Origin: Eledone cirrhosa | Lineage: Eukaryota | Length of the DNA stretch: 64,000 bases | Reading direction: 5' to 3' | Assembly: GCA_964016885.1 (NCBI GenBank) | Contig: OZ024740.1 | Coordinates: 19,468,001 to 19,532,000, forward strand | In this document: positions 1 through 51,061 of the stretch, in pieces | Position numbering within the stretch: the first letter of the stretch is position 1 | Layout: each line of letters opens with the position of its first letter | Made by a program: the position numbers and the translations under genes | Notes under the pieces: model-generated | Database searches by the model: none | What the model saw: the letters and a program-made list of their open reading frames with translations, nothing else | Told to the model about the DNA's origin: nothing

Positions 1-2972
1 AGCTTTTCTCGAACGGGCAGAGCCCCCCGGTAACACTGCCAGGCTAGGGACCTCTGGAAGTTGTCCATGGGTCCCGGGCCGAAAGTTCTACCGAACAGGC
101 TGGCCAGTTCGTCCTCCTCCATGCCTAGCGACTCTCCAAGGGTGTCGTCGCCCCTGCTGGCCACCAACCCTCTATAGAATGTTGAGGTGGATTCTCCACT
201 GACAGTCGGGTCCGCTTGCCAGATAGCCGTGAGCGCCTGGGCACACTCAGTGTGCCAGTTGCCCAGTTTTCTCGGTCTTTGCTTCACCCAGGATTGCAGT
301 TCGGTGAGCGAGACGAGCTGTGGGAAGGCTCGCCTCACAAACGGGGCCCACACCGGCTGACCGTTGAGGAATACCTGTAGATGCCGTAGCCTCAATGCGT
401 GCCTACGCATCAACAGCCACGGCATACCCAGCCCTCCTTTCGAAGGGTGCTGGCAGCAGATGGATCTCCTCACCATGGGAGGCCGCTTCTTCCAGAGGAA
501 CTGGAAGAGCATGCGTTCCATGATGGTGAGCTTTTCCTTGGGGCAAGGCACGACGGTCAGGCGGTAGTAGATGACGGACGCTATGTAAGCGTTCGTCACC
601 TCCGCCCGACCTTTCAGTGATAGTTTGCACTTGGCCCACTTCTGGGTCAGCGCAAACACCCTGCTCGTCACCTCGCCCCAATTCTTCTCCACCTGGAGGT
701 CCGGTCCGAACCAGACCCCGAGCAGCTTCACCGGGCCCTCCGTCCACCGCCCGACGACACCGTCTAACGGCATCGGTTTGCCCCTCCACGTTCCGAGTTG
801 CAAACCGACTGACTTGTCCTGGTTCAGCTTAGCCCCCGTCAGCCTTTCGTATTCCTCCAGTAGGGTGGCGATCGCCCCGATTTCCGAGGCGTCCGCCACC
901 ATTACTGTTACGTCGTCGGCATAGGCCGAGACCGCTTTGTGCAATCCCGGTTCCAGGGGTATGCCCCGCAGCAACTCCAACTTCCGCAGCAGTGGCTCGA
1001 GAGTCAATACGTACAGAAGGGAGGAGAGGGGGCACCCCTGTCTGATGGATCGGGTGATTTGAAACGGCTCCGAGAGGTAGCCGTTTACTTTAATCCTAGA
1101 GTAGATGTTGCCACTGTGCATGGCAGAAATCCAGCCCCTGAAAACGGGTCCGAAGCCCGCCGCCGCTAGCACCGCATCCAGGTAACCATGGTCGACCCTA
1201 TCGAACGCCTTAGATTGATCCAAGTTGATCAGGGCCCCACCAAAGCCGGGTTCGTAGCCAACCCTCTCTATGATGTATCGCATGAGGTGGAGGTTGTCGT
1301 GAATGGACCTGGACGGGATAGCGCATGTCTGCGCGTCTCCCACCAAACCACCCACCACAAGCGCCAACCTCTTCGCCAACACCTTGGCCAAAATCTGTAA
1401 CTCTGCATTCAGCAGAGTTATGGGCCTAAAGTTACTTAAGTCGTCCCCCTTGCTCTCGTCCTTCCTCACTAGCGTGACCACGCCCTTGGTCACAGAACAG
1501 GGAATTCTCCCGTTCTGTTGCCAGTTGCAATAGACAGCCTCGAGGAGTTCGGAGAACAAGACCGGCATAGCTAAATAAAGTTCGTATGGTAGACCATCGA
1601 GACCCGGGGATTTGCGTCTGCTGCATTGGCTGAGCGCTTCCCCGATTTCAGTGGCTGTGATTGGCCCTTCGCAGCACTCCGCTTCGCCGCTCGAAAGACG
1701 CGGTAGACCGTCGAGGTATGGACCGAAGTCCACATCCCCGTCCGGCCCCCCGCCACCTCCGAACAGTCGAGCAAAGTGCCTTTGAAAGGTCTCGCACATT
1801 CGCTCAGGTTCAAGGATCACCCGTCCATCCTGGTCTCGCAAAGACCGAATGGTGGATTTAATCCCACTCTTGGCTTCTGTCACGCGGGCCCAGCTAACAG
1901 CTTTGGTCCCCTCGTTTCCTAAAGCACGTATTTTACTTCGGACAACGCAGCCTTCGTGCTTCGTGTCAAAGAACTGGCTCAATGCCGTTCTCGTCGCTAA
2001 CACTCTGGCTACGTCTCCGCTCCTAATCGCCTCTTCTAGTTTATCTGTTAACTCCCTTTCCCTCCTATTTCTATTCGCCGCTAGTTCCTTACTGTAACCT
2101 ATCGAACTTACTCTAATCTCTCTCTTTAGAGATATCCACCACCTACTGTTGACGATCGCTCCCGTCAACCGCATCTTAACTAAGCTACTAATCCGGTTTC
2201 TGTAATCTTTCTTTGTCGGTAAGGACAAGTTCATCTTCCAGTAACCGGGACCCTGTCTATGCGTTCTATCAAGGTTGACCACGCAGGTCACTAATTTGTG
2301 ATCTGAATAGCCAACCATGATCAGTTCTGGACAACTAAATACGTCCCTATCCTTACTCCTAACCAAAAACCTATCTAGGTACGATCTAGATTGTCCACTG
2401 CGGTTTGCCCAGGTCCAGGTTGGCGCAGTTGGACAATCTAGTCGAAATCTATCGACCAGGTCGAATCGATCGAGTAACCCCTTGAGGCTGCTACACCCCC
2501 CTCTATCGGGACATGCCCCTGCATAGTCCCAACGCGCATCTAGGATTCCATTCCAGTCCCCCACTAAAAGCAGGGAACGCGACGTTCCTAGAAAAGTCTC
2601 CAGACGTTGGAAGAAGTCGGCTCTCTCCGCCCCGAAGGGAGCATAAAGACCGACCAGTCTGAAAGCCCCGCCTTCACCACCTCCGACGTCCAGCACCAGT
2701 AATCGACCCCCCGGGTCCGAGTGAACAATCTGTACGTCGAGAGTTAGACGTTTATCCAGCAGTACGGCAACTCCCCCCCCCCCGCCTCCGGGTTGACAGA
2801 GAGATGCGTGCATCTCAAAGTCATCGAAGGCGGGCGCCAGCTGTCTCACGCTGCTGATCCGACTCTCGCAAACAACCATCACATCTATACTTTGTGACCT
2901 GAGGTCACTTAGAAGCTTTGCTTGCTTCCAAGCTGAGCTCAGGCCACGCGCGTTCAAACAGCCAACTCTCAA
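1..2972 (-). CDS. ORF2 (APE endonuclease + reverse transcriptase) of Tx1 copy 1, open to window edge, no AUG at the homologous start
   Basis: One frame carries LRVGCLNARGL (2972), VGDWN (~2555), YADD (923) and SLAWQCYRGALPVRE (50). It is absent from the ORF track, consistent with having no stop inside the window. Confidence 0.9.
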   Translation of the reverse strand, partial: MRVGCLNARGLSSAWKQAKLLSDLRSQSIDVMVVCESRISSVRQLAPAFDDFEMHASLCQPGGGGGGVAVLLDKRLTLDVQIVHSDPGGRLLVLDVGGGEGGAFRLVGLYAPFGAERADFFQRLETFLGTSRSLLLVGDWNGILDARWDYAGACPDRGGCSSLKGLLDRFDLVDRFRLDCPTAPTWTWANRSGQSRSYLDRFLVRSKDRDVFSCPELIMVGYSDHKLVTCVVNLDRTHRQGPGYWKMNLSLPTKKDYRNRISSLVKMRLTGAIVNSRWWISLKREIRVSSIGYSKELAANRNRRERELTDKLEEAIRSGDVARVLATRTALSQFFDTKHEGCVVRSKIRALGNEGTKAVSWARVTEAKSGIKSTIRSLRDQDGRVILEPERMCETFQRHFARLFGGGGGPDGDVDFGPYLDGLPRLSSGEAECCEGPITATEIGEALSQCSRRKSPGLDGLPYELYLAMPVLFSELLEAVYCNWQQNGRIPCSVTKGVVTLVRKDESKGDDLSNFRPITLLNAELQILAKVLAKRLALVVGGLVGDAQTCAIPSRSIHDNLHLMRYIIERVGYEPGFGGALINLDQSKAFDRVDHGYLDAVLAAAGFGPVFRGWISAMHSGNIYSRIKVNGYLSEPFQITRSIRQGCPLSSLLYVLTLEPLLRKLELLRGIPLEPGLHKAVSAYADDVTVMVADASEIGAIATLLEEYERLTGAKLNQDKSVGLQLGTWRGKPMPLDGVVGRWTEGPVKLLGVWFGPDLQVEKNWGEVTSRVFALTQKWAKCKLSLKGRAEVTNAYIASVIYYRLTVVPCPKEKLTIMERMLFQFLWKKRPPMVRRSICCQHPSKGGLGMPWLLMRRHALRLRHLQVFLNGQPVWAPFVRRAFPQLVSLTELQSWVKQRPRKLGNWHTECAQALTAIWQADPTVSGESTSTFYRGLVASRGDDTLGESLGMEEDELASLFGRTFGPGPMDNFQRSLAWQCYRGALPVREK

Positions 2973-2977
2973 TTGAT

Positions 2978-4813
2978 CTATTTTGGTGTTGAAAGTGAAG
3001 AAAGAAAAGCACTTACCTCTCCGGGTTGCGTAATTTCCATGGCATCAGGTGTGTTGGGTGGAGGGATGTTTTGTGGTGGTGTGGGGGTACACGTGTGTGG
3101 TGGGGTTGGGGTATTTGGAGTTGTGTCAGGGAGAGGGGCGGTTATGGGGAAATCTTTCAAGAGGACGCGATTCAACGGTTTTAAACAGGGGGGGCTCACG
3201 TCCCGTCTAAATTGTTCTTTTAAGGAACGATAAAGGTCCAGAGGGACCTTTATCATTTTTAAATGGGTGAAGTTCTCTGTTGAGATAAAGTTTGGCCCTT
3301 CGGTCTGCACCATAGGGTTATTGTTTATTAATTTAACCAGTTTTTTGTTTTCTTTATTTATATATGTGTATTGCAACGTCTTTTTTTGTGATGCTGTCAA
3401 TGTTTCGGAGAGGGGAGGCGCAGATTTATTTTTGTTTGTTGAGGGTGGGGTGTTTTTGATTGGAGTTGGTGTTTGTGTGTGGGTTATTTGTGGTGTGCTG
3501 GGTGTGTGTTTTCTTTTTTTTCTTTTAACTTGTCTGAAGGCTTCTCCTCCTTCTTCTTCAGAAGTTGGGGGAAACTCTTCAGCGCTAGGTGGGAGGGACG
3601 TGTTGTGTGGTTGTTTTTTTTTTGCGGGAGGGGTAGATTTGTTACTGTTTTTTTTATTATTTGTTTGGAATGGGTTTTGTGGTGGTGGTGGTGGTAATGT
3701 TTGTGTCGTGCTTGTGGTTGGTAATGGTGGTGGTGATGTTTGTGTTGTGGTTGGTGGTGGTGATTTTTGTGTCGTGCTTGTGTTTGGTGCTGGTGGTGGT
3801 GATGTTTGTGTTGTGTTTGTGGTTGGTGGTGTCTGTATTTTGTTTGCTGTGTGTGGTATTAGTGTATTTTTGGAGGTGGGTGGTGCTGGTGTACTGTTTG
3901 TGGTGGGTGTGGGCAATAGTCCTTTTTGGGGGATACGTTTCGGGCAGTTAGCCTTAACGTGTCCCCTTTCCATGCATAAATAGCATGCTGGTCTTCTCCC
4001 CTCTACAATTATGTCTATTGGGGTAAGGTCATCCAGCCAGATGCGATCCGGGATTTGTGCTATTCTTTCGGGCCTCATTTGGACTAGTATGTCGAGGCCC
4101 ATTCCCAGGAACGCATCTCCAGTTGCCTTCCCCATTGACAGCATAGTGTCTTCGCCCATATCAATGAAGCCAGCAATAGCCCACCAGAAGTCCATTGTGG
4201 GCAGCATTGTTTTTACTTTTACCCTCTGTGTTCTTCTACCCATGTAGGAGGGATAGAAGCTATATGTTGTCGACGAGAGTGGGCTTAGGGAAAGCTGAAC
4301 CGCCGTTTCTTTGTCTCTTGTTAGGACCGAAATGCTGCCATAGAGTCGGTCCTTTCGTATGAAGAGAATATTCTTCATATAGTCTTTTAGGACTAACTCT
4401 ATTTCCATTTGGCTGGGCTGTGCTGGCTTTCTTGACTGGTTTAGTATAGTTCTGTATATAACTGTGTTTTCTTCTCTGGCTTTCTTGAATTCTGGGGGGG
4501 AGTTAATGGAAAACATTCCGTTCTCTCCCAAAACAATATGTTTCTTTGCTTCGGCCAGTTTTTCTCTGGCGGCAGTTAGGTCAATTGGTGTGTATGTAAT
4601 GGATTGCTTTGTTTTCTGGGCGAAAGTTGCCCTGTCGTTATTTGTATTATTTTCTGTTTGTTTGTTTTCTGTTTGCTCATTTTCCTTAACATTTGTTTTT
4701 TCATTTTGTTTGTTTGTTTCAATGTCTAATTTTGTTGTAATTATTTTTTGTTCTTCAGACTTGGGGGGCGTGGCAGAGCTAATGGCAGACATGTCTGCCA
4801 TCTTTTCCGCCAT
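2978..4813 (-). CDS. ORF1 (gag-like nucleic-acid-binding protein) of Tx1 copy 1
   Basis: 620-aa ORF in the track, first ATG at 4813; CYLCMERGHVKANC zinc knuckle, Pro/Thr-rich linker, KRKKRKH basic motif; homologous to ORF1 of copy 2. Confidence 0.9.
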   Translation of the reverse strand: MAEKMADMSAISSATPPKSEEQKIITTKLDIETNKQNEKTNVKENEQTENKQTENNTNNDRATFAQKTKQSITYTPIDLTAAREKLAEAKKHIVLGENGMFSINSPPEFKKAREENTVIYRTILNQSRKPAQPSQMEIELVLKDYMKNILFIRKDRLYGSISVLTRDKETAVQLSLSPLSSTTYSFYPSYMGRRTQRVKVKTMLPTMDFWWAIAGFIDMGEDTMLSMGKATGDAFLGMGLDILVQMRPERIAQIPDRIWLDDLTPIDIIVEGRRPACYLCMERGHVKANCPKRIPQKGLLPTPTTNSTPAPPTSKNTLIPHTANKIQTPPTTNTTQTSPPPAPNTSTTQKSPPPTTTQTSPPPLPTTSTTQTLPPPPPQNPFQTNNKKNSNKSTPPAKKKQPHNTSLPPSAEEFPPTSEEEGGEAFRQVKRKKRKHTPSTPQITHTQTPTPIKNTPPSTNKNKSAPPLSETLTASQKKTLQYTYINKENKKLVKLINNNPMVQTEGPNFISTENFTHLKMIKVPLDLYRSLKEQFRRDVSPPCLKPLNRVLLKDFPITAPLPDTTPNTPTPPHTCTPTPPQNIPPPNTPDAMEITQPGEVSAFLSSLSTPK

Positions 4814-5016
4814 GCTGCCAAGAAAGAAATTTTTCGGCAAAAATAGATATTTATTTTACCCCCTAAAAAGGGGGTAAATGCAAAAATGTTTCCCTAAATA
4901 ACAGGGGTTAGTGTTCCAAATGTGTTGCACTAAAAATTTTATCCGGTACTTACAATAGTAAGGGTAAATCCCGATGGAATAGCGGAGCCGATGCGAAGCG
5001 TGTCTTACTCTATCAA

Positions 5017-5040
5017 GATAGATAGATAGATAGATAGATA
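5017..5040. repeat. (GATA)6 tract between the two LINEs (tail/target site)
   Basis: Directly read; abuts the 3' end of copy 2 and the 5' end of copy 1. Confidence 0.95.
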
Positions 5041-5304
5041 AGTTTCTTTTATTTGCCACTAGGGCATCAAAAGTGGGACAAGTACAAAGGGGGGAGTTTA
5101 CACAAAAAGGCGTCCTCAATAAGGAGGAGGCAATAACAAAATATAAAAATAAAATAAGATATAACAAAAAATAAAATTTTTAACAAAATCCTCAATAGAG
5201 AGGAGGCGCCTTGGGGGGTCGCACACACCCCCGAAAAAAGTGTGCAACCCTTCTCCTCAGGAGCACAGAGAAGGGGTGCTCCCTTGGTCTTTCATCTTCC
5301 TCAC

Positions 5305-8300
5305 CTATAGTCTGATGTAGAGTGAAGGCCCATTCACACAGGCCATTCTCGCCACTTTCACCCATCTTTCATAGAAACGGCTGGGGTGCAGCACCTCTCT
5401 CTCCATCCTGATCCTTCTTCCGAAATGATATCGGAAGAAACGGACCAGTTGTTGGCCAGAGAGAAAGGTGCCTGACCTCAGTCCTTTCAGACGCGTCCAC
5501 CATACAACCTCTTTCGCCATGGCTATTACGCACAGAAACACCGCCTCTGCTTCATCTTTGAAGGGGGGAGGCGGCTTGATCATTACAATAGACTCGGTGG
5601 TCAACCGGATCGGTCCCACCCTTGACAGCAGTTGTTCGACATAGCCCAACAGATCGGCTACGCCCGAGCAGTGTACCAATGCGTGTGCAACGGTTTCCTC
5701 GTCGCACACGCATCTGGGACAGATCTTTTTGGCGGGGTCCCTACCCGGGCGCCCGTGTCTGTAGAGCCTTTCTCGAACGGGTAAAGCCCCTCGGTAGCAC
5801 TGCCAGGCCAGGGACTTCTGGAAGTTGTCCATAGGTCCCGGGCTGAATGTCCTACCGAACAGGCTGGCCAGTTCGTCCTCCTCCATGTCTAGGGCTTCTC
5901 CGAGGGCGTCGTCGCACCTGCTGCGTACCAGCCCTCTATAGAATGTTGCGGTGGAGTCTCCACTGATAACCGGATCCGCCTGCCAGAGGGCGGTGAGCGC
6001 CTGGGCACACTCAGTGTGCCAGGCGCCCAGTTTTCTCGGTCTTTGCTTGACCCAGGATTGCAGCTCGGTGAGTGAGACGAGTCTGGGAAAGGTTCGTCTC
6101 ACAAACGAGGCCCACACCGGTTGTCCGGTGAGGAATACGTAGAGGTGCCGTAGCCTTAATGCGTGTTTACGCATCATTAACCACGGCATCCCCAGCCCTC
6201 CTTTCGAAGGGTGTTAACAGCAGATGGATCTCCTCACCATAGGAGCCCGCCTCTTCCAAAGGAATTGGAAGAGCGCGCGCTCCATCTTGGTGAGGGTTTC
6301 CCTTGGGCAGGGCACTACGGTCAGGCGGTAGTAGATGACGGACGCTATGTAGGTGTTCGCCACCTCCGCCCGACCTTTCAGGGATAGTTTGCAACTGGCC
6401 CACTTCTGGGTCAGTGCAAACACCCTGTTCGTAACCTCCGCCCAGTTTTTCTCCACCTGGAGGTCCGGTCCGAACCAGACCCCGAGCAACTTCACCGGGC
6501 CCTCCGTCCAGCGTCCGACGACGCCATCGGAGGGCATCGGTCTGCCCCTCCACGTGCCGAGTTGCAAACCGATCGACTTGTCCCGGTTCAGCTTAGCCCC
6601 TGTGAACTTTTCGTACTCCTCCAGTAAGGTGCCGACCGCCTCGATTTCGGAGGCCGTCGACACCATTACTGTCACGTCATCGGCGTAGGCCGACACCGCT
6701 TTCCGCAATCCCGGTTCCAAAGGGATGCCCTGCAACAACTCCAACTTCCGCAGTAGTGGCTCGAGAGTCAACACATACAGAAGGGAGGAGAGAGGGCACC
6801 CTTGTCGGATGGACCGCGCGATTTTGAACGGCTCCGAGAGGTAGCCGTTCACCTTGACCCTAGAGCAGATGCGTCTGCTGTGCATAGCAGTGATCCAGCC
6901 CCTGAAGACGGGTCCGAAGCCTGCCGCCGCTAGCACCGCATCCAGGTAACCATGGTCGACCCTATCGAACGCCTTAGATTGATCCAAGTTGATCAGAGCC
7001 CCACCAAAGCCGGGTTCGTTCCCAACCCTCTCTATGATGTTTCGCATGAGGTGGAGGTTGTCATGGATGGACCTGGACGGGATATCGCATGTCTGCGCAT
7101 CTCCCACCAGGTTGCCCACGACAAGCGCCAACCTCTTTGCTAGCACCTTGGCCAAAATTTGTAACTCTGTATTTAGCAGAGTTATGGGCCTGAAGTTACT
7201 TATTTCGTCCCCCTTGTTCTCGTCCTTCCTCACTAGCGTGACTACGCCCTTGGTCACAGTACAGGGAATTCTCCCGTTATGTTGCCAGTTGCAGTAGACC
7301 GCCTCGAGGAGATCGGGGAACAAGTCCGGTATAGCTAGATATAATTCGTAAGGAAGACCATCGAGACCCGGGGATTTGCGTTTGCCGCATTGGCTCAGCA
7401 CGTCCTCTATCTCAGCGGCCAAAATCGGCTCCTCGCAGGACTTCGCTTCCCTGTCCGAGAGGCGCGGCAGGTCGTCGAGGTATGGACCGAAGTCCACGTT
7501 CCCAACCGGCTCCCCGCCCCTCCCGAACAGTCGGGCAAAGTGCCTTTGAAAGGCCTCACACATCTGCTTAGGCTCAAGAATCGCCCGTCCATCCAGGTCT
7601 CGCAAAGACCGGATGGTGGATTTAGTTCCACTGTTGGCCTCTGTCACGCGGGCCCAGCTAACAGCTTTGGTCCCCTCGTTCCCTAGAGCACGTATTTTAC
7701 TTCGGACAACGCAGCCTTCGTGCTTCGCGTCGAAAAACTGGCTCAAAGCCGTTCTCGACGCTAGCACTCTGGCCACGTCGCCGCTTCTAATTGCCTCTTC
7801 TACTCTATCTATTAGCTCCCTTTCCTTCCTATTCCTATCCGCAGCTAGAACCTTACTAAATTCTATCGAGACTACTCTAATCTCTCTCTTTAGAGATACC
7901 CACCACCTGCTGTTGACGATCGCTCCAGTCAACCGTTCCTTAACTAACGTACTAATCCGATTCCTGTAGGCTCTACTTGCCGGCAAGGACAAGTTGAGCT
8001 TCCAGTAACCGGGGCCCTGTCTATGAGTTCTGTCAAGGTTGACCATGCAGGTCACTAATTTGTGGTCTGAATAGCCAACCATGCGCATTTTTGGACAACT
8101 TAAAAAGTCCTTATCCTTAATTCTAACTAAGAACCTATCTAGGTACGACCTAGATGATCCGCTACGATTTGCCCAAGTCCAGGTTGGCGCAGTCGGAAAA
8201 TCTAGTCGATATCTATCGGCCAGGTCAAATCGACCGATTAACCCTTTGAGGCTATTACACCCCGCTCTATCGGGGCAGGCCCCTACGTAGTCCCAGCGTG

Positions 8301-8742
8301 CATCTAGGATACCATTCCAGTCCCCCACTAATAGCAAGGAGCGGGACGTCCCTAGAAAAGTCTCCAGACGATGGAAGAAGTCCGGCCGCATTGACCCGAA
8401 AGGGCCGTAGGCGGCTACCAACCTAAACGCTCCGCCTTTACCACTGCCAAGGTCCAGAACCACTAGTCGACCCTCCGGGTCCAAATGTACCATCTGTGTT
8501 GCGAGACCCAGATGTTTTTGCAGCAGAACGACAACTCCACCCCCACCTCCGGGCTGACAGAGAGATGCGTGCATCTCAAAGTCATCAAAGGTGGGGGCCA
8601 GCTGTCGCACGTTGCTGATCCGGGCCTCGCAAATAACCATCACATCTATACGTTGTGACCTGAGGTCATTTAGATGCATTGCTTGCTTCCAAGTTGAGCC
8701 CAGGCCACGCGCATTTAAACAGCCTACTCTTAGCATAGCCAT
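5305..8742 (-). pseudogene. ORF2 of Tx1 copy 2 (APE-RT-zinc knuckle) with one in-frame TAA at 6214-6216
   Basis: GDWN, YLDRF, SDH (APE); QGCPLS, YADD (RT); CPRC..HALVHC at the C-terminus. ORFs 6214-8766 and 5305-6189 share a frame, and copy 1 has a Gln codon at the stop. Confidence 0.9.
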
Positions 8743-8766
8743 GTTGGTGGTGAAGAGAAAAGGCAC

Positions 8767-10565
8767 TTACCTCTCTGCGTCCCGGGTATCGGGCTGCACA
8801 ATTTCCATTAGGGTGGGGGATGGGTTGTTGGGTGGGGTGGTGGTTTGTGGAAGTGTAGGGGCATCAGTGTGTTGTGTGGTTGGGGAGCTTGGAGTTGTGT
8901 GGGTGTTTGGGGAGGGGGTGGGGTAGTTTTTTAGGAGGACGCGGTTAATGGGCCCGACGCAGGGGGGGGGGGGGCACGTCCTCTTTAAAATTGTTTTTTA
9001 AAGTTTTATAGGTGTCCTGTGGGGCCTTAATCATTTTGAGGTGGGGGAAATCCCCTGCCTGGGTGAAGTTAGGCCCTTGTGTTTTTATTAGATTGTTGTT
9101 GTACACAATGTTTAACAGTTTTTTTGTTTCTTGTGTTTATGTATGTGTATGCATGTTTTTGTTTTTGTGTGGTGTTTTTTGTTTGCTGTTGTTGTGAGCT
9201 CTTTTGTGTTGGTGTCAGTGTTATGTTTTGGGGAGGGGTTGTTTTCATTTGTGTGTCTGAGGTGTGTTTTCTTTTTTTTCTTTTGATTGTGTGGAAGTGT
9301 TCCTCCTCGTCTGACGACGAACTAGGGTCATCTTCCGCGTTGGAGGGGAGGGGTATATTTTCGGGTTGTGTTTGCGGTACGGGTGTTTTGGAAATTGTTT
9401 TTGTTTTTTGAGTGGAGGGGATGGGTTGGACATTGTTTTGTTTTGGTTTGAGCTGTGGTGGTTGTTTTTGTAGTGGTAGTTGTGGTGATTGTGTTGGTTG
9501 TGCAGTTGTTGGTGGTGTAGGCAGGATTGGGGTTTTCTTATTAAGTTGGGGACAGACAGCCCTCAGGTGACCTCTGGTTCCGCAGAGGTAACACGAGGGC
9601 CGTCTACCCTCAACGGTAATGTTGATGAAGGTTAGATCATCCAGTATGACGCGTTCAGGGATCTGGGCGATCCTTTCGGGCCTCATTTGAACTACAAGTT
9701 CGAGGCTCGTTCCACTGAACGCGTCACCCGATGCCTTTCCCATGGACACCAGCATGTCATCCTCCAGGTCCAGAAAACCTGTCAAAACCCACCATATGTC
9801 CATAATCGGCAGGATGGTGTGGATTTTTATTTTTTGTGTTCTTCTACCCATGTACGTAGGGTAGAAGGTGTATGCGGTGGATGTGATTGGTTTGATGGAC
9901 AGTTTCACTGCTGTGTCCCTGTCCTTCATCAGAATGGATAGACTCCCGTAGAGTCTATCCTTCTGAATGAAGGTGATGTCCTTCATGACGTCTTTTAAAA
10001 CCAGCTCTATCTCGCTCTGTGATGGTTGAGCTGGTTTTTTACTTTTGTTCGAGATTGTCCTAAACATGACCGTGTTTAGGAGTCTCTGGCTTTTTAGTTC
10101 CGGGGGGGAATGGATTGTGAATGAACCATTTTCTCCGTACACTATATATTTGTTCGCATCCGCCAGTAGCTCCTTCGCTTTTGTTATATCTACTGGCAGA
10201 TAGTCGAGGGTTTTCTTTGTCGTCTCGGCGAAAGATAAATTTTGTTTGTTTGTGTTGTTGTTGTCGTTGGTGGTGTTGTTGTTATCATTGTTGTTGTTGT
10301 CACCGTTATTGGTCTTGTTGTTGTTGTTATTGTTATTGTTATTGGTGTTGTTTTCGTCCGTCGCATTGTTGTTGTTGTTGCTGTTGCTGCTGGTTCTTTG
10401 GGTTGTTGCCATGGCAACGTCAAGTTGTCGGTTAACAGGTGGAGAGAATTCTTCCTCTGGCTGACCTTTCTTCTTGACCTCTGCTACTGTGACAGTGGCA
10501 GGGGGAAGCTGTAAGTTCATCTTCCCCTTTCCTCCTTCGAATTTTGGTGAAGAAGCTTCGGCCAT
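8767..10565 (-). pseudogene. ORF1 of Tx1 copy 2 with two +1 frameshifts in homopolymers (~9119-9125, 8962-8974)
   Basis: CYLCGTRGHLRAVC knuckle; homology to copy-1 ORF1 (GPNF..HLKMIK..NRVLLK..MEI) continues in shifted frames to TAA 8769-8767. The frameshifts may be sequencing errors. Confidence 0.85.
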
Positions 10566-11129
10566 TTAAAAAAATATTGACTTTTCAACAAGAAAAAACT
10601 TTTTTTTTTGTTTAACTATTTCGCCTAAAGGCGTAGAATATTTTGAGAGACTGACCAGATCAAAGTTTGACCTGGCAGTCCCTCTACAAAATGGTACAAA
10701 AATTAAAGTTATCAGACAAGAATTTCTATAGAAATTTAAACAGAACTTACTCAGCAAGTTATACGCGTGTGTCCATCCCAGAGACAGACAGATAGATAGA
10801 TAGATAGACAGGCAGCTGTAGTTCTGTGATATACAGATATAGAATGTACCCTACCTACACCCATGGGGCATTCATTCTAAATGACTGAATCATCACTTAA
10901 CGGGGCTACATATATCAACATCGCAACAACGGGAATGTTTAGGGGGAGGGGTCATATCTTCTACTTTTGTAGTTGTTATTGTTGTTGTGGGTAATAATGA
11001 TGATGATGATGATGATGATGATCTCAGGAATGTTTCTGAAACGAAAGGGGTCTTCGGCGGTGCAGGGAGGGGGGCGTCGTCATATGTTCTACTGTTTTAG
11101 TTGTGGTTATTGTTGTTGTGGATAATAAA

Positions 11130-25223: not shown

Positions 25224-25370
25224 ACGAAGGAAGTGTGGTAAGGAACCAGGTGGACCATAACGCACCAGAGTACTCGATACTTTGTACTTTGAGTAGTAGA
25301 GTGGGTAATATGACTCTACTACCCAAAGTATCGAGCTTGAGCTCTGCCGTCGGGATCTTGACTCTTTTCC

Positions 25371-25405
<35 letters not shown>

Positions 25406-25559
25406 TAGACAAGACAAGACCTAATTCGCTTAACGAGTGGGGTGGAGCACGTCAAATTGGACCGAGGAAACAATGTTTCCACTGCTCTTTTCAATTGCTA
25501 ATACTATCTACCAGACGCAAATCTAGGCAGAGGGAAATAAAATGTCTTGCTCAAGCAAC

Positions 25560-25700
25560 GTGAAATAAAGTGTCTTGCTCAAGCAACGTGAAATAAAGTG
25601 TCTTGCTCAAGGACATAACGCATCACCCGGTTCGGGAATCTAACTCACAATCTCACGATTGCAAATCCAATCCCCTAACCACCCAGCAACGCACCTTCAC
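25560..25700 (-). mobile_element. 5' part of a second tRNA-derived SINE family
   Basis: GTCTTGCTCAAGGAC...GGGAATC.AACTCAC...CCCTAACCAC. Confidence 0.55.
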
Positions 25701-26242
25701 TTCCTGTCGATATAATATATTAATTAGGTGCGTAACAACAGTTACTGGTGCCGCGCCATTCCAAGTACTCAATACTGTTACGAGGTCCGTTTCATTTGTG
25801 TTGTATTCCAATGTTACAGCTGTAGTGTACAGAGTGTAAAATAGATTTAAAAGGGTCAAAGTCAGTGTTGCAGCAAATGTACAAACTTTATTTGTATATT
25901 ACAATTGTTTCGATATCGATCAGCTCAGGGTACAACCAAGGTGAGGGAGCTCGATCATTTTTCGACATCTCATCAGATATGCGAGCTTATATGTGCAAAG
26001 ACGCATGTATACGTAAATAAAACCGTTATTGCTCCAATCAGTCCACAAACACTCAGCAAACACCGTAAACCGAACGTCAAATTACACGCATGACTGCTAT
26101 ATCACTAAACCTCACTCACCCTCCAAATTCAGTGGACCACCCATCCTCCCAAACTTGACTTACATAACCGGACCACAACAGCCACCTAATGAGGAAGACA
26201 GGCATTATCAAGACGCAGCTGTCATATTACATAGTTTCTATA

Positions 26243-26419
26243 TAATTGTTTCTACTGTTGGCACAAGTCCAGCAATTACCAGTGCATTACTGGTACTTTA
26301 TTTTATCGACCCCGTAAGGATGAAAGGCAAAGTTAACCTCGACGGGATTTGAACTCAGACCATAAAGGGACATAACTCTTTTCTGCAAAGCATGACATCA
26401 GATCCTCTACCGATACTGC
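26243..26419 (-). mobile_element. tRNA-derived SINE
   Basis: Same major family. Confidence 0.8.
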
Positions 26420-26536
26420 TATATAATAAAGCCCAAAAAGCTATTATTATCTGCAGCATATATATACTCACATATACATATATATACTTACACATATATA
26501 TATATGTGTGTGTGTGCGTGTGTGCGTGCGTGTGTG

Positions 26537-26641
<105 letters not shown>

Positions 26642-26976
26642 TTAACGTTAAGATAGATTACATTTATGTAACATCTATCTTAACGTTAAGTCATTCAAAG
26701 AAACTCCGTCGCGTTTGATCACCGCCGTAATGCTGGATAGATACGGCGAGTGTGGAGTGCTTTTATCTGTTTAGACCCCTTTATCAACGAGGTGTCGCAT
26801 CGCAATTCTTGCAGATAAGCAACACAGTAATTATCTATAAGTTTCTATTAATGCACTTGTGGTGAATAGTCCTATCTTATAAAGTATCCGAAACTATAAT
26901 GCTGGTGCACGGGAATTCTCCATGTACTTGTCTCTTCCACATTTTCTGTTTCCTACATTTCTCCCACGTGTTTTTC

Positions 26977-27012
<36 letters not shown>

Positions 27013-27013
<1 letters not shown>

Positions 27014-27136
27014 AAGGTAAACTGAAAGAGTCTTAACGTTTCGTACGCTAGTCTTTCATCAGAAAAAAGTATATATATATTTTCTTCTGATGATAGACTA
27101 GCGTACGAAACGTTAAGACCCTTTCAGTTTACCTTT
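27013..27136. mobile_element. Short fold-back element with a hammerhead motif on each strand
   Basis: Arms 27013-27066/27082-27136; tctt-CTGATGA..GAAACGTT-aaga; related tandem copies at ~56850 and ~57240. Confidence 0.6.
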
Positions 27137-27222
27137 TACACACACACACATATATATAGAGAGAGGGGGGTCTATATATATGTAGTCTCGATAGATAGAA
27201 AGAAAGAAAGAAAGAAAGAGAT

Positions 27223-27407
27223 AATTGTTTCTACTTTTGGCACAAGGCCAGTAATTACCCAGTGTATTACTTGTACTTTATTTTATCGACCTCGTAAGGA
27301 TGAAAGGTAAAGTTAACCTCGGCGAGATTTGAACTCAGAATGGAAAGGGCTGTAACTCTTTGCGTCAAAGCATGGCGTCCGACCCTCTACCGATACTGCC
27401 ATCCACC
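27223..27407 (-). mobile_element. tRNA-derived SINE
   Basis: Same major family; a diverged relative at 28625-28791. Confidence 0.8.
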
Positions 27408-28549
27408 AGAGATAATGGAAGAGAGTAAGATTTTTTTGATTTAAAGTGTTTAAAAAATCGTTGAGACCCAGAAAAATAAAATAAACATTACAAATTGTGT
27501 TAGAGAACTGCAACGTTTGTAGTGTGAGGAAAGCAGACGATAAGTAAATAGGAGCGAGATGTTTTTGAGAGGGGGACAACGTCTGTTATCTACATTAGTA
27601 TTTAACGTATAAAGTTACCTTTAAATAAATGTAAGGGCGATACATACCTTACCATGGCTGGAAATAGGGCTAACGGAAGTATAAAAAATAAGGGAGGAAC
27701 GACAGAGAAGATAGTAGTAGTGGTGGTGGTGGTGGTGGTGGTGGTGGTAGTAGTAGTAGTAGTAGTGGTGGTGGTGGTGGTGATGGTGGTGGTGGTGGTG
27801 GTGGTGGAAGTAATGGTGGTGGTGGGGGAGATCTCCCACCCACCCGAAAGTGGGTGGGAGATGTCTTCTCTTGTGAAAATTGGTATAGCTTTCATTATGT
27901 AAAATCTACCCATTTTGCCTCATTTCTTTCCGTTTTGGGGCACTTTTCTTCATGGTACTCCCCGTTTGGGTTTTTATAGGTTGGCCTGTCTGTAAGGACA
28001 GTTGTTCTATCTTCGTGATAAATTCAGCTGGTGGCCGGATCTGTCCTTTACACAATAACAGACATAAACACAGCAATCAGTAGTATATTAACACTGAAAG
28101 AACATATGACAGTCGGTTTGGTCACTCTGTACATATCTTTGACAGGTTCGGTTGCTGGTAGTTCCAGCACTGCCACGTATGTTGTATGTATGGTCCCATA
28201 ACTCCTGATAGAAGCGTAGGGGCGCCGTATTGGCATACAACGTTTCGTGAGTATTTTAAACCTGGCGGAGCCCATCCCTCCCCAGGCCTGAGTACAGCAG
28301 ATTTCTTCCAGAGAAGGATAGAAAATGAGAGAGGAAATGAGAAAGAGATATAGAAGAAGAATCGACCCCAGTACTAGACTGGTACTATATATATATATAT
28401 ATATATATATAACAAAGGAAATGTGGTAAGGCACCAGATGGACCATAACGCACCAGCGTACTCAATACTTAGGGTAGTAGAGTGGTAAATAGGAAAAAGT
28501 ATGACCCCGACGGCAGAGCTCTAGCCGTTTCGACGGGGTCATACTTTTT

Positions 28550-28606
<57 letters not shown>

Positions 28607-28799
28607 TGAGAGAGAGATATAGAGGAAGAATTGACCCTAGTACTAAACTGGTACTTTTTTTATCGACCTCGAAAGGATGAAAGGCAAAGTTTACCTTGGC
28701 TGGATTTGAACTGAGAGAGCAGAGAGCAGAGCTAGAAGGAATACCATAAAGCATTCTATCTGACATTCTAACGACTCTGCCAATTCACCACCTATCACG

Positions 28800-29045
28800 T
28801 ATGTTGACGTTATCCTAAACCAACAACGCTTCTGCCGGGACAGTTAAGTTGGCCCAGGTTTGCTCCTGTTTGATGAGCTTTCATGCCTGGGCCAACTTTG
28901 TTTCCTTGTCTGTCAAGTCTATGTTGAAGCATGGCCTTTTCTTGGCTGCTGCCGCAGCGAAAGTGTTCTTGTTGTTGTCGTTGGTGTTGTTGTTGTCGTT
29001 GTTACTGTTGGTGTTGCTGCTGCTATCACTGTTGCAGCCGGTATT
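28800..29045 (-). pseudogene. Degenerate Tx1-family ORF1 N-terminal fragment
   Basis: NNDNNNTNDNNKNTFAAAAAKKRPCFNIDLTDKETKLAQA*KLI aligns with copy-1 ORF1 NNTNNDRATFAQKTKQSITYTPIDLTAAREKLAEAKKHI. Confidence 0.6.
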
Positions 29046-29047
29046 AT

Positions 29048-29153
29048 AAAAATCAGTTTAATATCGATGGTTCCATATAGAGACCGTATCAGATATTAAG
29101 CTGATAAGAACAGATACTATACTTTGATCTTAACCAAAAGGCCGAGAAGCGGT
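29048..29153 (-). pseudogene. RNU2: U2 snRNA 5' portion (~nt 1-105, up to the Sm site), pseudogene
   Basis: Minus strand reads ACCGCTTCTCGGCCTTTTGGTTAAGATCAAAGTATAGTATCTGTTCTTATCAGCTTAATATCTGATAC...GATTTTT. GTGTAGTA is changed to GTATAGTA and the 3' stem-loops are absent. Confidence 0.92.
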
Positions 29154-29242
29154 CTTTTGGTTAAGATCTGGTTTCTCCTCACCCCGAGCGGATAAATATT
29201 TCGCCTTTTACTAAATCAACAACATTATCAGAATGTAGTAGA

Positions 29243-29431
29243 GGGCGGTGGATTGGCAGTATCGGTAGAGGGTCGGATGCCATGCTTTGCAGCACAGTTA
29301 CGTCCCTTTACGGACTGAGTTCAAATCCCGTCGAGGTTAACTTTGCCTTTCATCCTTACGGGGTCGATAAAATAAAGTACCAGTAATACACTGAGATAAT
29401 TGCTGGCCTTGTGCCAAAAGTAGAAACAATT
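29243..29431 (+). mobile_element. tRNA-derived SINE
   Basis: Near full-length copy with A- and B-boxes. Confidence 0.85.
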
Positions 29432-29839
29432 TTCATAATGTAGTACTACTAAGCCAAGGGAGTTTAGAATAAACCCCAGTGTGAATGTCCTCCAGAAGAA
29501 ACTACTTAATGTCCTCGTCAGCAGCCAAAATTGCTCCCATACTATCGATAATCTTATCATGAACTAACCCTCCTTGAAATATCATAATTGCCTTTATACT
29601 GACCACCTACCCAGCAGGTAGAGTACAGTTAGAGCCTAGCACCATGCCTGATGCCAAAGGTCAAATTTTGGTTTGCACTTCTCCTGGGAAGGACTACAGC
29701 TTGGTCAAAGAGAAGAGCATCCAACAATGGCAACGAATGAGGAAACATTTACAGTTACAAAGGTAGATTACTGACAGAGAAAGGCCACGTATTTGGGAAG
29801 GAAAGGCGTATAGAAGATTTCTACCTAGCCCAATATTTG

Positions 29840-30357
29840 ATTGGTCCTTTATTTTATCAGCACCGGAAGGATGAGAAACAGTGTTGAGTCAGACGGGATT
29901 TGAACATAGAAGTGTAAAGATCCATAAATACACAGGAAGTATGCTGCCGACATTCTACCGATTCTGCCATCCACTGAGCCCTTAATATCTAACATAACAC
30001 CGCAAATATTTTATATGTATATGTAAGGGGAATGTATTGTGTGGTTGGAAGGTGTGGTGAGTGTAGGAGTGTAAAGATGAAAGGCAATAATTTGAACTGA
30101 GATTGTAAAGGGCCGTAACTCTATGCTACAACGTATGCTGCCGATGCTCTACCGACACTGTCAATCCATCGCCCTTAATTCGGTGAATATACTTTTGGCA
30201 CAAGGCCAGCAATAACGCCAGTGTATTACTGGTACTTTATTTTATCAACCCCGTAAGGATGAAAGGTAAAGTTAACCTCGACGGGATTTGAACTCATACC
30301 ATAAAGGGACATAACTCTATGCTAGAAAGCATGGCGTCCGACCCTCTACCGATACTG
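29840..30357 (-). mobile_element. Cluster of three SINE copies/fragments (~29840-29975, 30070-30175, 30191-30357)
   Basis: Family body motifs present. Confidence 0.7.
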
Positions 30358-31774: not shown

Positions 31775-34700
31775 AGCTAAATAAGTCATAGCTTAGGGCC
31801 ACACGCCCTTGGGAGAGCCTCAATGTAGACAGTGCTAGACTTACCTATAAGTCATAGCTTAGGGCCACACACCCTCAGGGGGGCCTCAATGTAGACAGTG
31901 CTAGACTTACCTATAAGTCATAGATTAGGGCCACACACTCTCGGGAGAGCCTCAATGTAGACAGTGCTAGACTTACCTATAAGTCATAGCTTAGGACCAC
32001 ACACCCTCAGGAGGGCCTCAATGTAGACAGTGCTAGACTTACCTATAAGTCATAGCTTAGGGCCACACACTCTCGGGAGAGCCTCAATGTAGCCAGTGCT
32101 AGACTTACCTATAAGTCATAGCTTAGAGCCACACACCCTCGGGAGGGCCTCAATGTAGACAGTGCTAGACTTACCTATAAGTCATAGCTTAGGGCCACAC
32201 ACCCTCAGGATGGCCTCAATGTAGACAGTGCTAGACTTACCTATAAGTCATAGCTTAGGGCCACACACTCTCGGGAGAGCCTCAATGTAGCCAGTGCTAG
32301 ACTTACCTATAAGTCATAGCTTAGGGCCACACACCCTCGGGAGGGCCTCAATGTAGACAGTGCTAGACTTACCTATAAGTCATAGCTTAGGGCCACACAC
32401 CCTCAGGATGGCCTCAATGTAGACAGTGCTAGACTTACCTATAAGTCATAGCTTAGGGCCACACACTCTCGGGAGAGCCTCAATGTAGCCAGTGCTAGAC
32501 TTACCTATAAGTCATAGCTTAGGGCCACACGCCCTCGGGAGAGCCTCAATGTAGACAGTGCTAGACTTACCTATAAGTCATAGCTTAGGGCCACACACCC
32601 TAAGGAGGGCCTCAATGTAGACAGTGCTAGACTTACCTATAAGTCATAGCTTAGAGCCACACACCCTCGGGAGAGCCTCAATGTAGCCAGTGCTAGACTT
32701 GCCTATAAGTCATAGCTTAGGGCCACACACCCTCAGGAGGGCCTCAATGTAGACAGTGCTAGACTTACCTATAAGTCATAGCTTAGGGCCACACACCCTC
32801 GGGAGAGCCTCAATGTAGACAGTGCTAGACTTACCTATAAGTCATAGCTTAGGGCCACACGCCCTCGGGAGAGCCTCAATGTAGACAGTGCTCGACATAC
32901 CTATAAGTCATAGCTTAGAGCCACACGACCTCGGGAGAGCCTCAATGTAGACAGTGCTAGACTTACCTATAAGTCATAGCTTAGGGCCACACACCCTAAG
33001 GAGGGCCTCAATGTAGACAGTGCTAGACTTACCTATAAGTCATAGCTTAGAGCCACACACCCTCGGGAGAGCCTCAATGTAGCCAGTGCTAGACTTACCT
33101 ATAAGTCATAGCTTAGGGCCACACACCCTCGGGAGGGCCTCAATGTAGACAGTGCTAGACTTACCTATAAGTCATAGCTTAGGGCCACACACCCTAAGGA
33201 GGGCCTCAATGTAGACAGTGCTAGACTTACCTATAAGTCATAGCTTAGGGCCACACACCCTCGGGAGGGCCTCAATGTAGACAGTGCTAGACTTACCTAT
33301 AAGTCATAGCTTAGGGCCACACACCCTAAGGAGGGCCTCAATGTAGCCAGTGCTAGACTTACCTATAAGTCATAGCTTAGGGCCACACACCCTCGGGAGG
33401 GCCTCAATGTAGACAGTGCTAGACTTACCTATAAGTCATAGCTTAGGGCCACACACCCTAAGGAGGGCCTCAATGTAGACAGTGCTAGACTTACCTATAA
33501 GTCATAGCTTAGGGCCACACACCCTCGGGAGGGCCTCAATGTAGACAGTGCTAGACTTACCTATAAGTCATAGCTTGGAGCCACACACCCTCAGGAGGGC
33601 CTCAATGTAGACAGTGCTAGACTTACCTATAAGTCATAGCTTGGAGCCACACACCCTCAGGAGGGCCTCAATGTAGACAGTGCTAGACTTACCTATAAGT
33701 CATAGCTTGGAGCCACACACCCTCAGGAGGGCCTCAATGTAGACAGTGCTAGACTTACCTATAAGTCATAGCTTGGAGCCACACACCCTCAGGAGGGCCT
33801 CAATGTAGACAGTGCTAGACGTACCTATAAGTCATAGCTTAGGGCCACAGACTCTCGGGAGAGCCTCAATGTAGCCAGTGCTAGACTTACCTATAAGTCT
33901 TAGCTTAGGGCCACACGCCCTCGGGAGAGCCTCAATGTAGCCAGTGCTAGACTTACCTATAAGTCATAGTTTAGGGCCACACACACTCGGGAGAGCCTCA
34001 ATGTAGACAGTGCTAGACTTACCTATAAGTCATAGCTTAGGGCCACACACCCTCAGGATGGCCTCAATGTAGACAGTGCTAGACTTACCTATAAGTCATA
34101 GTTTAGGGCCACACACACTCGGGAGAGCCTCAATGTAGACAGTGCTAGACTTACCTAGAAGTCATAGCTTAGGGCCACACGCACTCGGGAGAGCCTCAAT
34201 GTAGACAGTGCTAGACTTACCTATAAGTCATAGCTTAGGGCCACACACCCTCAGGATGGCCTCAATGTAGACAGTGCTAGACTTACCTATAAGTCATAGC
34301 TTAGGGCCACACACCGTCAGGAGGGCCTCAATGTAGACAGTGCTAGACTTACCTATAAGTCATAGCTTAGGGCCACACACCCTCAGGATGGCCTCAATGT
34401 AGACAGTGCTAGACTTACCTATAAGTCATAGCTTAGGGCCACACACCCTCAGGACGGCCTCAATGTAGCCAGTGCTAGACTTACCTATAAGTCATAGCTT
34501 AGGGCCACCCACCCTCGGGAGAGCCTCAATGTAGACAGTGCTAGACTTACCTATAAGTTATAGCTTAGGGCCACACACCCTCGGGAGAGCCTCAATGTAG
34601 CCAGTGCTAGACTTACCTATAAGTCATAGCTTAGGGCCACACGGCCTCGGGAGAGCCTCAATGTAGCCAGTGCTAGACTTACCTATAAGTCATAGATTAG

Positions 34701-37700
34701 GGCCACATACCCTCAGGATGGCCTCAATGTAGCCAGTACTAGACTTACCTATAAGTCATAGCTTAGGGCCACACACTCTCGGGAGGGCCTGAGTGTAGCC
34801 AGTACTAGACTTACCTATAAGTCATAGCTTAGGGCCACACACTCTCGGGAGGGCCTGAGTGTAGCCAGTGCTAGACTTACCTATAAGTCATAGCTTAGGG
34901 CCACACACTCTCGGGAGGGCCTGAGTCTAGCCAGTACTAGACTTACCTATAAGTCATAGCTTAGGGCCACACGCCCTCGGGAGAGCCTCAATGTAGCCAG
35001 TACTAGACTTACCTATAAGTCATAGCCTAGGGTCACACATCCTTAGCAGGGCCTCAATGTAGACAGTGCTAGACTTACCTATAAGTCATAGCTTAGGGCC
35101 ACACACTCTCGGGAGAGCCTCAATGTAGACAGTGCTAGACTTACCTATAAGTCATAGCTTAGGGCCACACACTCTCGGGAGAGCCTCAATGTAGACAGTG
35201 CTAGACTTACCTATAAGTCATAGCTTAGGGCCACACACCCTCGGGAGAGCCTCAATGTAGACAGTGCTAGACTTACCTATAAGTCATAGCTTAGGGCCAC
35301 ACACTCTCGAGAGAGCCTCAATGTAGCCAGTGCTAGACTTACCTATAAGTCATAGCTTAGAGCCACACACCCTCGGGAGGGCCTCAATGTAGACAGTGCT
35401 AGACTTACCTATAAGTCATAGCTTAGGGCCACACACCCTCAGGATGGCCTCAATGTAGACAGTGCTAGACTTACCTATAAGTCATAGCTTAGGGCCACAC
35501 ACTCTCGGGGAGCCTCAATGTAGCCAGTGCTAGACTTACCTATAAGTCATAGCTTAGGGCCACACGCTCTCGGGAGAGCCTCAATGTAGACAGTGCTAGA
35601 CTTACCTATAAGTCACAGCTTAGAGCCACACGCCCTCGGGAGAGCCTCAATGTAGACAGTGCTAGACATACCTATAAGTCATAGCTTAGAGCCACACGCC
35701 CTCGGGAGGGCCTCAATGTAGACAGTGCTAGACTTACCTATAAGTCATAGCTTAGCGCCACACACCCTCAGGATGGCCTCAATGTAGACAGTGCTAGACT
35801 TACCTATAAGTCATAGCTTAGGGCCACACACCCTCAGGAGGGCCTCAATGTAGACAGTGTTAGACTTACCTATAAGTCATAGCTCAGGGCCACACACCCT
35901 CAGGAGGGCCTCAATGTAGACAGTGTTAGACTTACCTATAAGTCATAGCTTAGAGCCACACACCCTCAGGAGGGCCTCAATGTAGACAGTGCTAGACTTA
36001 CCTATAAGTCATAGCTTAGGGCCACACACTCTCGGGAGAGCCTCAATGTAGCCAGTGCTAGACTTACCTAAAAGTCTTAGCTTAGGGCCACACACCCTCG
36101 GGAGAGCCTCAATGTAGCCAGTGCTAGACTTACCTATAAGTCATAGCTTAGGGCCACACACCCTCAGGAGGGCCTCAATGTAGCCAGTGCTAGACTTACC
36201 TATAAGTCATAGCTTAGAGCCACACACCCTTAGGAGGGTCTCAATGTAGACAGTGCTAGACTTACCTAAAGTCATAGCTTAGAGCCACACACCCTCAGGA
36301 GGGCCTCAATGTAGCCAGTGCTAGACTTACCTATAAGTCATAGCTTAGGGCCACACACCCTCAGGAGGGCCTCAATGTAGACAGTGCTAGACTTACCTAT
36401 AAGTCATAGCTTAGGGCCACACACCCTCGGGAGAGCCTCAATGTAGCCAGTGCTAGACTTACCTATAAGTCATAGCTTAGGGCCACATACCCTCAGGATG
36501 GCCTCAATGTAGCCAGTACTAGACTTACCTATAAGTCATAGCTTAGGGCCACACACTCTCGGGAGGGCCTGAGTGTAGCCAGTACTAGACTTACCTATAA
36601 GTCATAGCTTAGGGCCACACACTCTCGGGAGGGCCTGAGTGTAGCCAGTGCTAGACTTACCTATAAGTCATAGCTTAGAGCCACACACCCTTAGGAGGGT
36701 CTCAATGTAGACAGTGCTAGACTTACCTATAAGTCATAGCTTAGAGCCACACACCCTCAGGAGGGCCTCAATGTAGCCAGTGCTAGACTTACCTATAAGT
36801 CATAGCTTAGGGCCACACACCCTCGGGAGAGCCTCAATGTAGCCAGTGCTAGACTTACCTATAAGTCATAGCTTAGGGCCACACGCCCTCGGGAGAGCCT
36901 CAATGTAGTCAGTGCTAGACTTACCTATAAGTCATAGCTTAGGGCCACATACCCTCAGGATGGCCTCAATGTAGCCAGTACTAGACTTCCCTATAAGTCA
37001 TAGCTTAGGGCCACACACTCTCGGGAGGGCCTGAGTGTAGCCAGTACTAGACTTACCTATAAGTCATAGCTTAGGGTCACACACTCTCGGGAGGGCCTGA
37101 GTGTAGCCAGTGCTAGACTTACCTATAAGTCATAGCTTAGGGCCACACACTCTCGGGAGGGCCTGAGTGTAGCCAGTACTAGACTTACCTATAAGTCATA
37201 GCTTAGGGCCACACGCACTCGGGAGAGCCTCAATGTAGCCAGTACTAGACTTACCTGTAAGTCATAGCTTAGGGTCACACATCCTTAGCAGGGCCTCAAT
37301 GTAGACAGTGCTAGACTTACCTATAAGTCATAGCTTAGGGCCACACACTCTCGGGAGAGCCTCAATGTCGACAGTGCTAGACTTACCTATAAGTCATAGC
37401 TTAGGGCCACACACTCTCGGGAGAGCCTCAATGTAGACAGTACTAGACTTACATATAAGTCATAGCTTAGGGCCACACACCCTCGGGAGAGCCTCAATGT
37501 AGACAGTGCTAGACTTACCTATAAGTCATAGCTTAGGGCCACACACTCTCGAGAGAGCCTCAATGTAGCCAGTGCTAGACTTACCTATAAGTCATAGCTT
37601 AGAGTCACACACCCTCGGGAGGGCCTTAATGTAGACAGTGCTAGACTTACCTATAAGTCATAGCTTAGGGCCACACACCCTCAGGATGGCCTCAATGTAG

Positions 37701-50861: not shown

Positions 50862-51061
50862 NNNNNNNNNNNNNNNNNNNNNNNNNNNNNNNNNNNNNNN
50901 NNNNNNNNNNNNNNNNNNNNNNNNNNNNNNNNNNNNNNNNNNNNNNNNNNNNNNNNNNNNNNNNNNNNNNNNNNNNNNNNNNNNNNNNNNNNNNNNNNNN
51001 NNNNNNNNNNNNNNNNNNNNNNNNNNNNNNNNNNNNNNNNNNNNNNNNNNNNNNNNNNNNN
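50862..51061. other. Assembly gap (200 N)
   Basis: N run. Confidence 1.

Follow-up and report, generated by a model that had tools for sequence, protein, structure and literature searches.

The window (the whole 64-kb stretch of DNA analysed) contains a composite unit made of a U5 snRNA half, a U2 snRNA half and a fragment of a LINE ORF1, which was probably laid down as a single, now dead, insertion by an octopod reverse transcriptase of the L1/Tx1 type. In this reading the enzyme would have switched from the LINE RNA to U2, the cDNA would have snapped back on itself, U5 would have been added by twin priming, and the 3' part of the element would have been lost later. Read along the minus strand, the unit consists of an inverted U5 5' half (29167..29215, plus strand), an inverted copy of nt 14-28 of the U2 copy (29154..29168, plus strand), U2 from nt 1 to about nt 105 (29048..29153, minus strand) and the ORF1 piece, comprising an Asn/Ser-rich low-complexity segment directly after U2 (28971..29047, minus strand) and a conserved N-terminal block with two in-frame stops (28794..28970, minus strand). 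The unit is a real composite. Its junctions are each of a known kind, but neither their combination nor the host was found in the literature searched, and it is most likely a one-off copying accident of kinds known piecewise from mammals and crocodiles.

A single match reaches the Rfam gathering score in the 64-kb window: U2 (RF00004), running from 29153 to 29036 on the minus strand with 101.9 bits (E 2.2e-19). From model position 1 to the U-run of the Sm site at 29048 the alignment is reliable, and the 3' 77 positions of the model are missing from the copy. An earlier sequence-only reading of this DNA had placed U2 nt ~1-105 at 29153-29048 of the minus strand, and these coordinates were right. 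It had also held that the junction with ORF1 differs from the site used by Keno, with which our alignment agrees: Keno and Utopia both insert at U2 nt 38/39 (PMC4640811), whereas the junction here lies at about nt 105. As the U2 copy runs continuously through nt 38/39 to about nt 105, identity with Keno or Utopia was ruled out.

Directly adjoining U2 nt 1, positions 29154-29168 form a perfect 15-bp inverted copy of 29126-29140 (nt 14-28 of the U2 copy), so that the inverted repeat described from the letters is real; when extended to 29151, the arms match at 17 of 18 positions. Folded as DNA, the fold-back gave a z of -10.1 (0 of 200 shuffles). Perfect inverted repeats of at least 15 bp are not rare in the window, which holds ten of them, four of these being complex (including the fold-back), and the present one is noteworthy because one of its arms sits in U2. 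At a position where C is conserved in the Rfam U2 consensus, both arms carry a T, which is what copying of one arm from the other would produce. The comparison is with the Rfam consensus, not with true octopod genes, and the shared T could also be native or stem from later conversion.

The fold-back arm continues directly into the 5' half of U5 on the plus strand, opposite to both U2 and ORF1, with an overlap of 2 nt (29167-29168). This U5 half is the third part of the unit and was missed in the earlier reading. The alignment covers model positions 1-49 of RF00020 (29167..29215 itself being about nt 5-49), the 3' side being cut just after loop 1, and scores 30.4 bits (E 8.2e-4) from a 54-nt stretch that was picked once the loop had been seen; in a Rfam scan of 801 nt, loop 1 alone scores (19.4 bits, E 3.7). 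The piece is taken as real because the alignment comprises an exact 17-nt run through loop 1 together with upstream matches in the correct order, and because it lies 45 nt away from U2 nt 1. An inverted, 3'-truncated U5 beyond the fold-back speaks for twin priming and against insertion into a real U2 gene. The outer flank of the piece is a 27-bp stretch of presumed target DNA (29216..29242, no strand assigned), followed by a SINE-like repeat (29243..29431, plus strand), a separate later insertion with its own flanking duplication of 12 bp with one mismatch (29229-29240 / 29434-29445).

On the other side of U2, one reading frame gives an Asn/Ser-rich tract followed by a block with two stops. 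The fragment P0001 (28970-28788, minus strand, translated with X at both stops) was identical in 29 of 59 residues to CAI9741097.1 from Octopus vulgaris (P0086), a score reached by 0 of 5000 shuffles. Support independent of P0086 came from a profile of 26 family members from which that protein had been left out, built from the ORF1s of the neighbouring elements A and B (see below) and 24 hand-picked proteins chosen for covering the N-terminal or central part of ORF1; the fragment scored 15.3 bits against it, with a shuffle maximum of 6.8 (0 of 1000). The Asn/Ser-rich segment aligns to the Asn tract of P0086, and the ORF1 of element A has a similar tract. Direct comparison of the fragment with the ORF1s of A and B gave weak similarity (scores reached by 54 and 13 of 2000 shuffles, respectively). 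A full protein scan with element B ORF1 returned 124 proteins, including P0086 and the 24 used in the profile, some of the 124 matching the zinc knuckle only, while word-index protein searches with residues 60-320 of the same ORF1 and with the fragment gave no matches. Eight of the ten family proteins that were looked up belong to Octopus vulgaris, O. sinensis, O. bimaculoides or Argonauta hians, and on this ground the host is presumed to be an octopod. Judged by these alignments, the ORF1 homology is real, and the fragment is assigned to the same family as the ORF1s of A and B, but to a different subfamily.

The sequence-only reading, which stood or fell with this homology, described U2 as followed at once, and in the same sense, by the N-terminus of a Tx1 ORF1. 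The adjacency and the homology were borne out; the very N-terminus was not, since ATG is absent in 29060-28964, and none occurs in the 27 codons that separate U2 from the conserved ORF1 motif. Before this motif P0086 has 125 residues and element A 110, and several other members begin only 3-6 residues ahead of it, which makes the missing ATG weaker evidence than P0086 alone suggests; decay could also have removed the start codon. At its far end, the ORF1 similarity stops near 28793, at a dispersed repeat (28626..28793, start approximate, minus strand) that we presume to be SINE-like and that has many copies in the window (blastn). Neither tblastn nor the family profile found further ORF1 or ORF2 of the element in 11000-64000, and no LINE 3' end or tail for the fragment was found in the window, so that a chimeric retrocopy would call for later loss or for internal priming.

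The window is repeat-rich, with many nested repeats. It holds a satellite of 66-bp period (31781-39703, 120 copies, 93% matches), tandem arrays of ~55-bp period (12058-12927, 16 copies) and 10-bp period (20829-24041, 325 copies), and a dispersed repeat (28386-28589) with a palindromic centre (28486-28557) and further copies near 25200, 45000 and 50300. An open frame at 17094-18131 (minus strand) had no Pfam match at E 0.1; its C-terminal half resembles what we take to be the GIY-YIG end of a Penelope-like element. The sole N gap lies at 50862-51061.

Two LINEs at the window's start are related to the ORF1 fragment. Element A (5040..10790, minus strand) is a near full-length L1/Tx1-type LINE with (TATC)n at both ends; its ORF1 (9069-10565) includes a CCHC zinc knuckle, and its ORF2 (8766-5305) has APE, RT and zf-RVT domains, one internal stop and human L1 ORF2p as its best solved relative (E 4.9e-45). 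Element B (1..5016, minus strand; ORF1 2978-4855) is a related LINE that begins after (TATC)n and runs off the window edge. The two stand in tandem, with 83.5% DNA identity over 3420 nt and 59% identical ORF1 cores, and their (TATC)n flanks suggest a microsatellite-targeting lineage. By homology, the ORF1 family is that of APE+RT elements of the L1/Tx1 group. The label Tx1 as against L1 is compatible with the architecture and microsatellite flanks of the neighbours, from which it was taken, and not from a tree; no named Tx1 reference was present among the 120 ORF2 relatives listed for element A. For the RT of this element, many relatives at 50-55% were found in ENA records and closer ones at NCBI and JGI (66-79%).

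The 5' regions of A (10640-10795) and B (4855-4937), both on the minus strand, have a U-rich motif of Sm type with a hairpin after it. Their Rfam matches were all sub-threshold (U2 at 14.2 bits, E 1.2, and SL2 at 20.3 bits for A; SmY at 20.6 bits for B), and an AT5-6G motif also turns up in 233 and 339 of 2000 shuffles. When these heads were aligned to the U2 and U5 pieces in eight tests, only the reversed U5 against head A stood out (14 of 1000), the alignments of A and B to the U2 piece being non-significant (348 and 628 of 1000 shuffles). An snRNA origin of the heads is not claimed; the Sm-RNA-like signals may be chance in AT-rich UTRs.

For the unit itself, the sequence establishes which parts are present, with their order, orientation and breakpoints; from these we infer six steps, with three RNAs as templates, and their unity as one event. 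A first-strand cDNA, corresponding to the plus strand, would have been copied from the LINE RNA through the conserved ORF1 block to a point about 27 codons upstream of it, whereupon the reverse transcriptase would have jumped to U2 snRNA at the single-stranded U-run of the Sm site and copied to the U2 5' end. The 3' end of the cDNA would then have snapped back on itself and been extended by ~15-18 nt, while the other target strand would have primed on U5 at loop 1, with U5 then copied towards its 5' end (twin priming). The two cDNA ends would have been joined across the 2-nt overlap, and the portion of the LINE beyond the ORF1 N-terminus, on its 3' side, would have been lost later at a SINE, or never copied. 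As a variant of the third to fifth steps, the U5-primed strand itself may have jumped onto U2 nt 28, from which the same sequence results.

This one-insertion reading is preferred because each junction fits one known step (switch, snap-back or twin priming). U2 and ORF1 abut in the same sense without spacer, and upstream of U2 nt 1 lie the fold-back and U5 in place of an ordinary flank; by the rule given by Law and Burns (PMC13174262), same-sense partners come from switching or ligation and opposite-sense partners from twin priming. The inverted U5 is cut at model nt 49, near the human twin-priming cuts: Doucet et al. 2015 (PMC4476161) ascribed four human U5 copies lying opposite to L1 or SVA to this process, the inverted copies being cut in the same loop at nt 36, 43, 46 and 48, whereas U5 copies from sense switches start internally; truncations of snRNA retrocopies in that study fall in single-stranded segments. 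The non-consensus T common to both fold-back arms favours the reading as well, as does a junction inside ORF1 without ATG, P0086 having its long N-terminal extension before the motif. Snap-back and extra-template 5' junctions, for their part, have been seen directly in R2 insertions (PMC11331408). Against a single insertion, the reverse transcriptase would have copied some 5 kb before switching, as estimated from element A, and the human U2/L1 chimeras of PMC4476161 are inverted, not sense, with switching mostly to U6. The 3' end of the element, which would prove a single event, is missing, as ORF1 and ORF2 do not continue in 11000-64000, and with it gone no credible target-site duplication around the unit was found in 20001-29050, the best match being 10 nt within an AAC microsatellite.

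It is rather unlikely that two events were involved, with a twin-primed U5/U2 retrocopy landing in or beside an ORF1 fragment that had decayed before. Such a history would sit well with the lack of a duplication bracketing the whole unit, the absence of the element body and the density of nested repeats in the window, and most human snRNA retrocopies stand alone and are 3'-truncated (166 of 256, PMC4476161). The abutment in the same sense to the 5' part of an ORF1 would, however, be chance, and the family profile finds no ORF1 beyond U5; a comparison of 29432-29845 with residues 1-110 of P0086 gave a score reached by 22 of 500 shuffles in the best frame, and by 496 and 345 of 500 in the others.

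The unit could instead be one copy of a propagated family, either an octopod Tx1 lineage headed by U2 (or by U5/U2) and comparable to Tx1-11_Crp, or a non-autonomous element resembling SINEU, which we regard as unlikely. In crocodilians, Tx1 families headed by U1 or U2 have been described (Kojima 2015, PMC4494074), so that a U2-derived 5' end is already a known state, and SINEU grows by repeated 5' additions in the same account. In O. vulgaris, 80 L1-Tx1 families have been reported together with one SINE family 'U' (369,490 bp) and one 'U-L1' (52,753 bp) in the repeat table (PMC13282606), and the 5' region of element A has the sub-threshold U2 match given above. Contrary to this, the stretch from U2 to the ORF1 block has no ATG and the fragment carries two stops, the window contains one such unit, and neither the head of A nor that of B shows significant alignment with the U2 piece. 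When metagenome contigs were scanned with two ORF1 alignments, none of the pattern hits (270 with one, 595 with the other) was confirmed. In a search of sequencing runs, 20 of 23 rows had a small share (at most 0.13) and none had half, with no RNA run among those listed, a result uninformative on the junction. The wider proposition that octopod L1/Tx1 elements carry and pass on spliceosomal-RNA 5' ends, the unit being a copy of a propagated family and the 5' regions of A and B older heads, is a long shot; such a family would perhaps be the SINE 'U' or 'U-L1' of O. vulgaris. If true, SINEU and Tx1-Mar would have an invertebrate counterpart, one with an inverted head of two snRNAs, and this would suggest that these LINE particles work in contact with spliceosomes containing U2 and U5.

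Very unlikely is a Tx1 lineage whose target is the Sm site of U2 genes, in which case the unit would be a 5'-truncated insertion into U2. Tx1 elements that target small RNAs do exist, such as Keno for U2, and the legend to Fig. 3 in PMC4494074 lists a U5 target; an insertion truncated at its 5' end would likewise put the junction inside ORF1. Yet the sequence upstream of U2 nt 1 is fold-back and U5, not a gene flank, the window's relatives A and B sit in (TATC)n, and the known U2-targeting lines use the more 5' site (PMC4640811). That no U2 3' half is found in the window says little on targeting, because the 3' end of the element is missing. Of the options in the sequence-only reading, a template-switch chimera or a Tx1 lineage with either a new U2 target or a U2-derived 5' end, the first is the best reading, the second has little support, and the third is a state already known in crocodilian Tx1 (PMC4494074). 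Also very unlikely is a DNA-level rearrangement of U2 and U5 genes that were linked, or a misassembly at the hairpin: U2-U5 linkage is known in fishes and Drosophila (PMC3464664) and fold-backs form at broken DNA ends (10.1101/2024.12.14.628481), but such linkage fits poorly with two 3'-cut RNAs without spacer DNA, both ending in single-stranded segments and U2 beginning exactly at nt 1, and the sole N gap lies elsewhere.

Taken as one insertion, the unit is a single dead copy with no likely function, and what makes it valuable is the mechanism it records. A single junction here combines a switch of template, a snap-back and U5 loop-1 twin priming, in a mollusc and with a non-mammalian LINE, and suggests that priming on loop 1 of U5, as seen with human L1, is general to this group of enzymes. 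Should the junction recur, it would mark an snRNA-headed retroposon family outside crocodilians.

The literature search returned no cephalopod snRNA-LINE chimera and no inverted-U5/U2/LINE unit, although subscription papers, Repbase and the supplements of PMC4494074, PMC4476161 and PMC13174262 may hold some; further context is provided by PMC5786205 and 10.1101/2024.12.14.628481. Among known systems, Keno (Tx1) and Utopia (RLE) share with the unit U2 5' sequence upstream of a non-LTR element (PMC4640811) and differ in their insertion site, and no U2 3' part is present in the window. The crocodilian Tx1-Mar and SINEU also combine a Tx1-type LINE and its U2-derived 5' part with stacked snRNA pieces (PMC4494074). 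These are propagated families, whereas the octopod unit is known from one copy with an ORF1 without start, and the main text of PMC4494074 describes no U5 piece or inversion. In sense snRNA/LINE and triple chimeras, the 5' part of an snRNA likewise lies in sense on a 5'-truncated LINE, and three-part chimeras, also cited in PMC4476161, are known in human, mouse and Magnaporthe (PMC4476161, PMC13174262); the octopod unit has U2 in place of U6, cut at the Sm site, with one part inverted and the junction near the ORF1 start. R2 5' junctions resemble the unit in carrying a short inverted copy of the cDNA end and a second copied RNA, and come from a different clade, with engineered templates in human cells (PMC11331408). 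From the human inverted U5/L1 chimeras (group IV in PMC4476161) the octopod unit differs in its sense U2 half and fold-back between U5 and the LINE, and in showing neither a duplication nor a LINE 3' end. In both, an snRNA is joined directly 5' of LINE sequence, and the LINE has on its 5' side, in opposite sense, a 5' half of U5 that ends within loop 1 or immediately after it.
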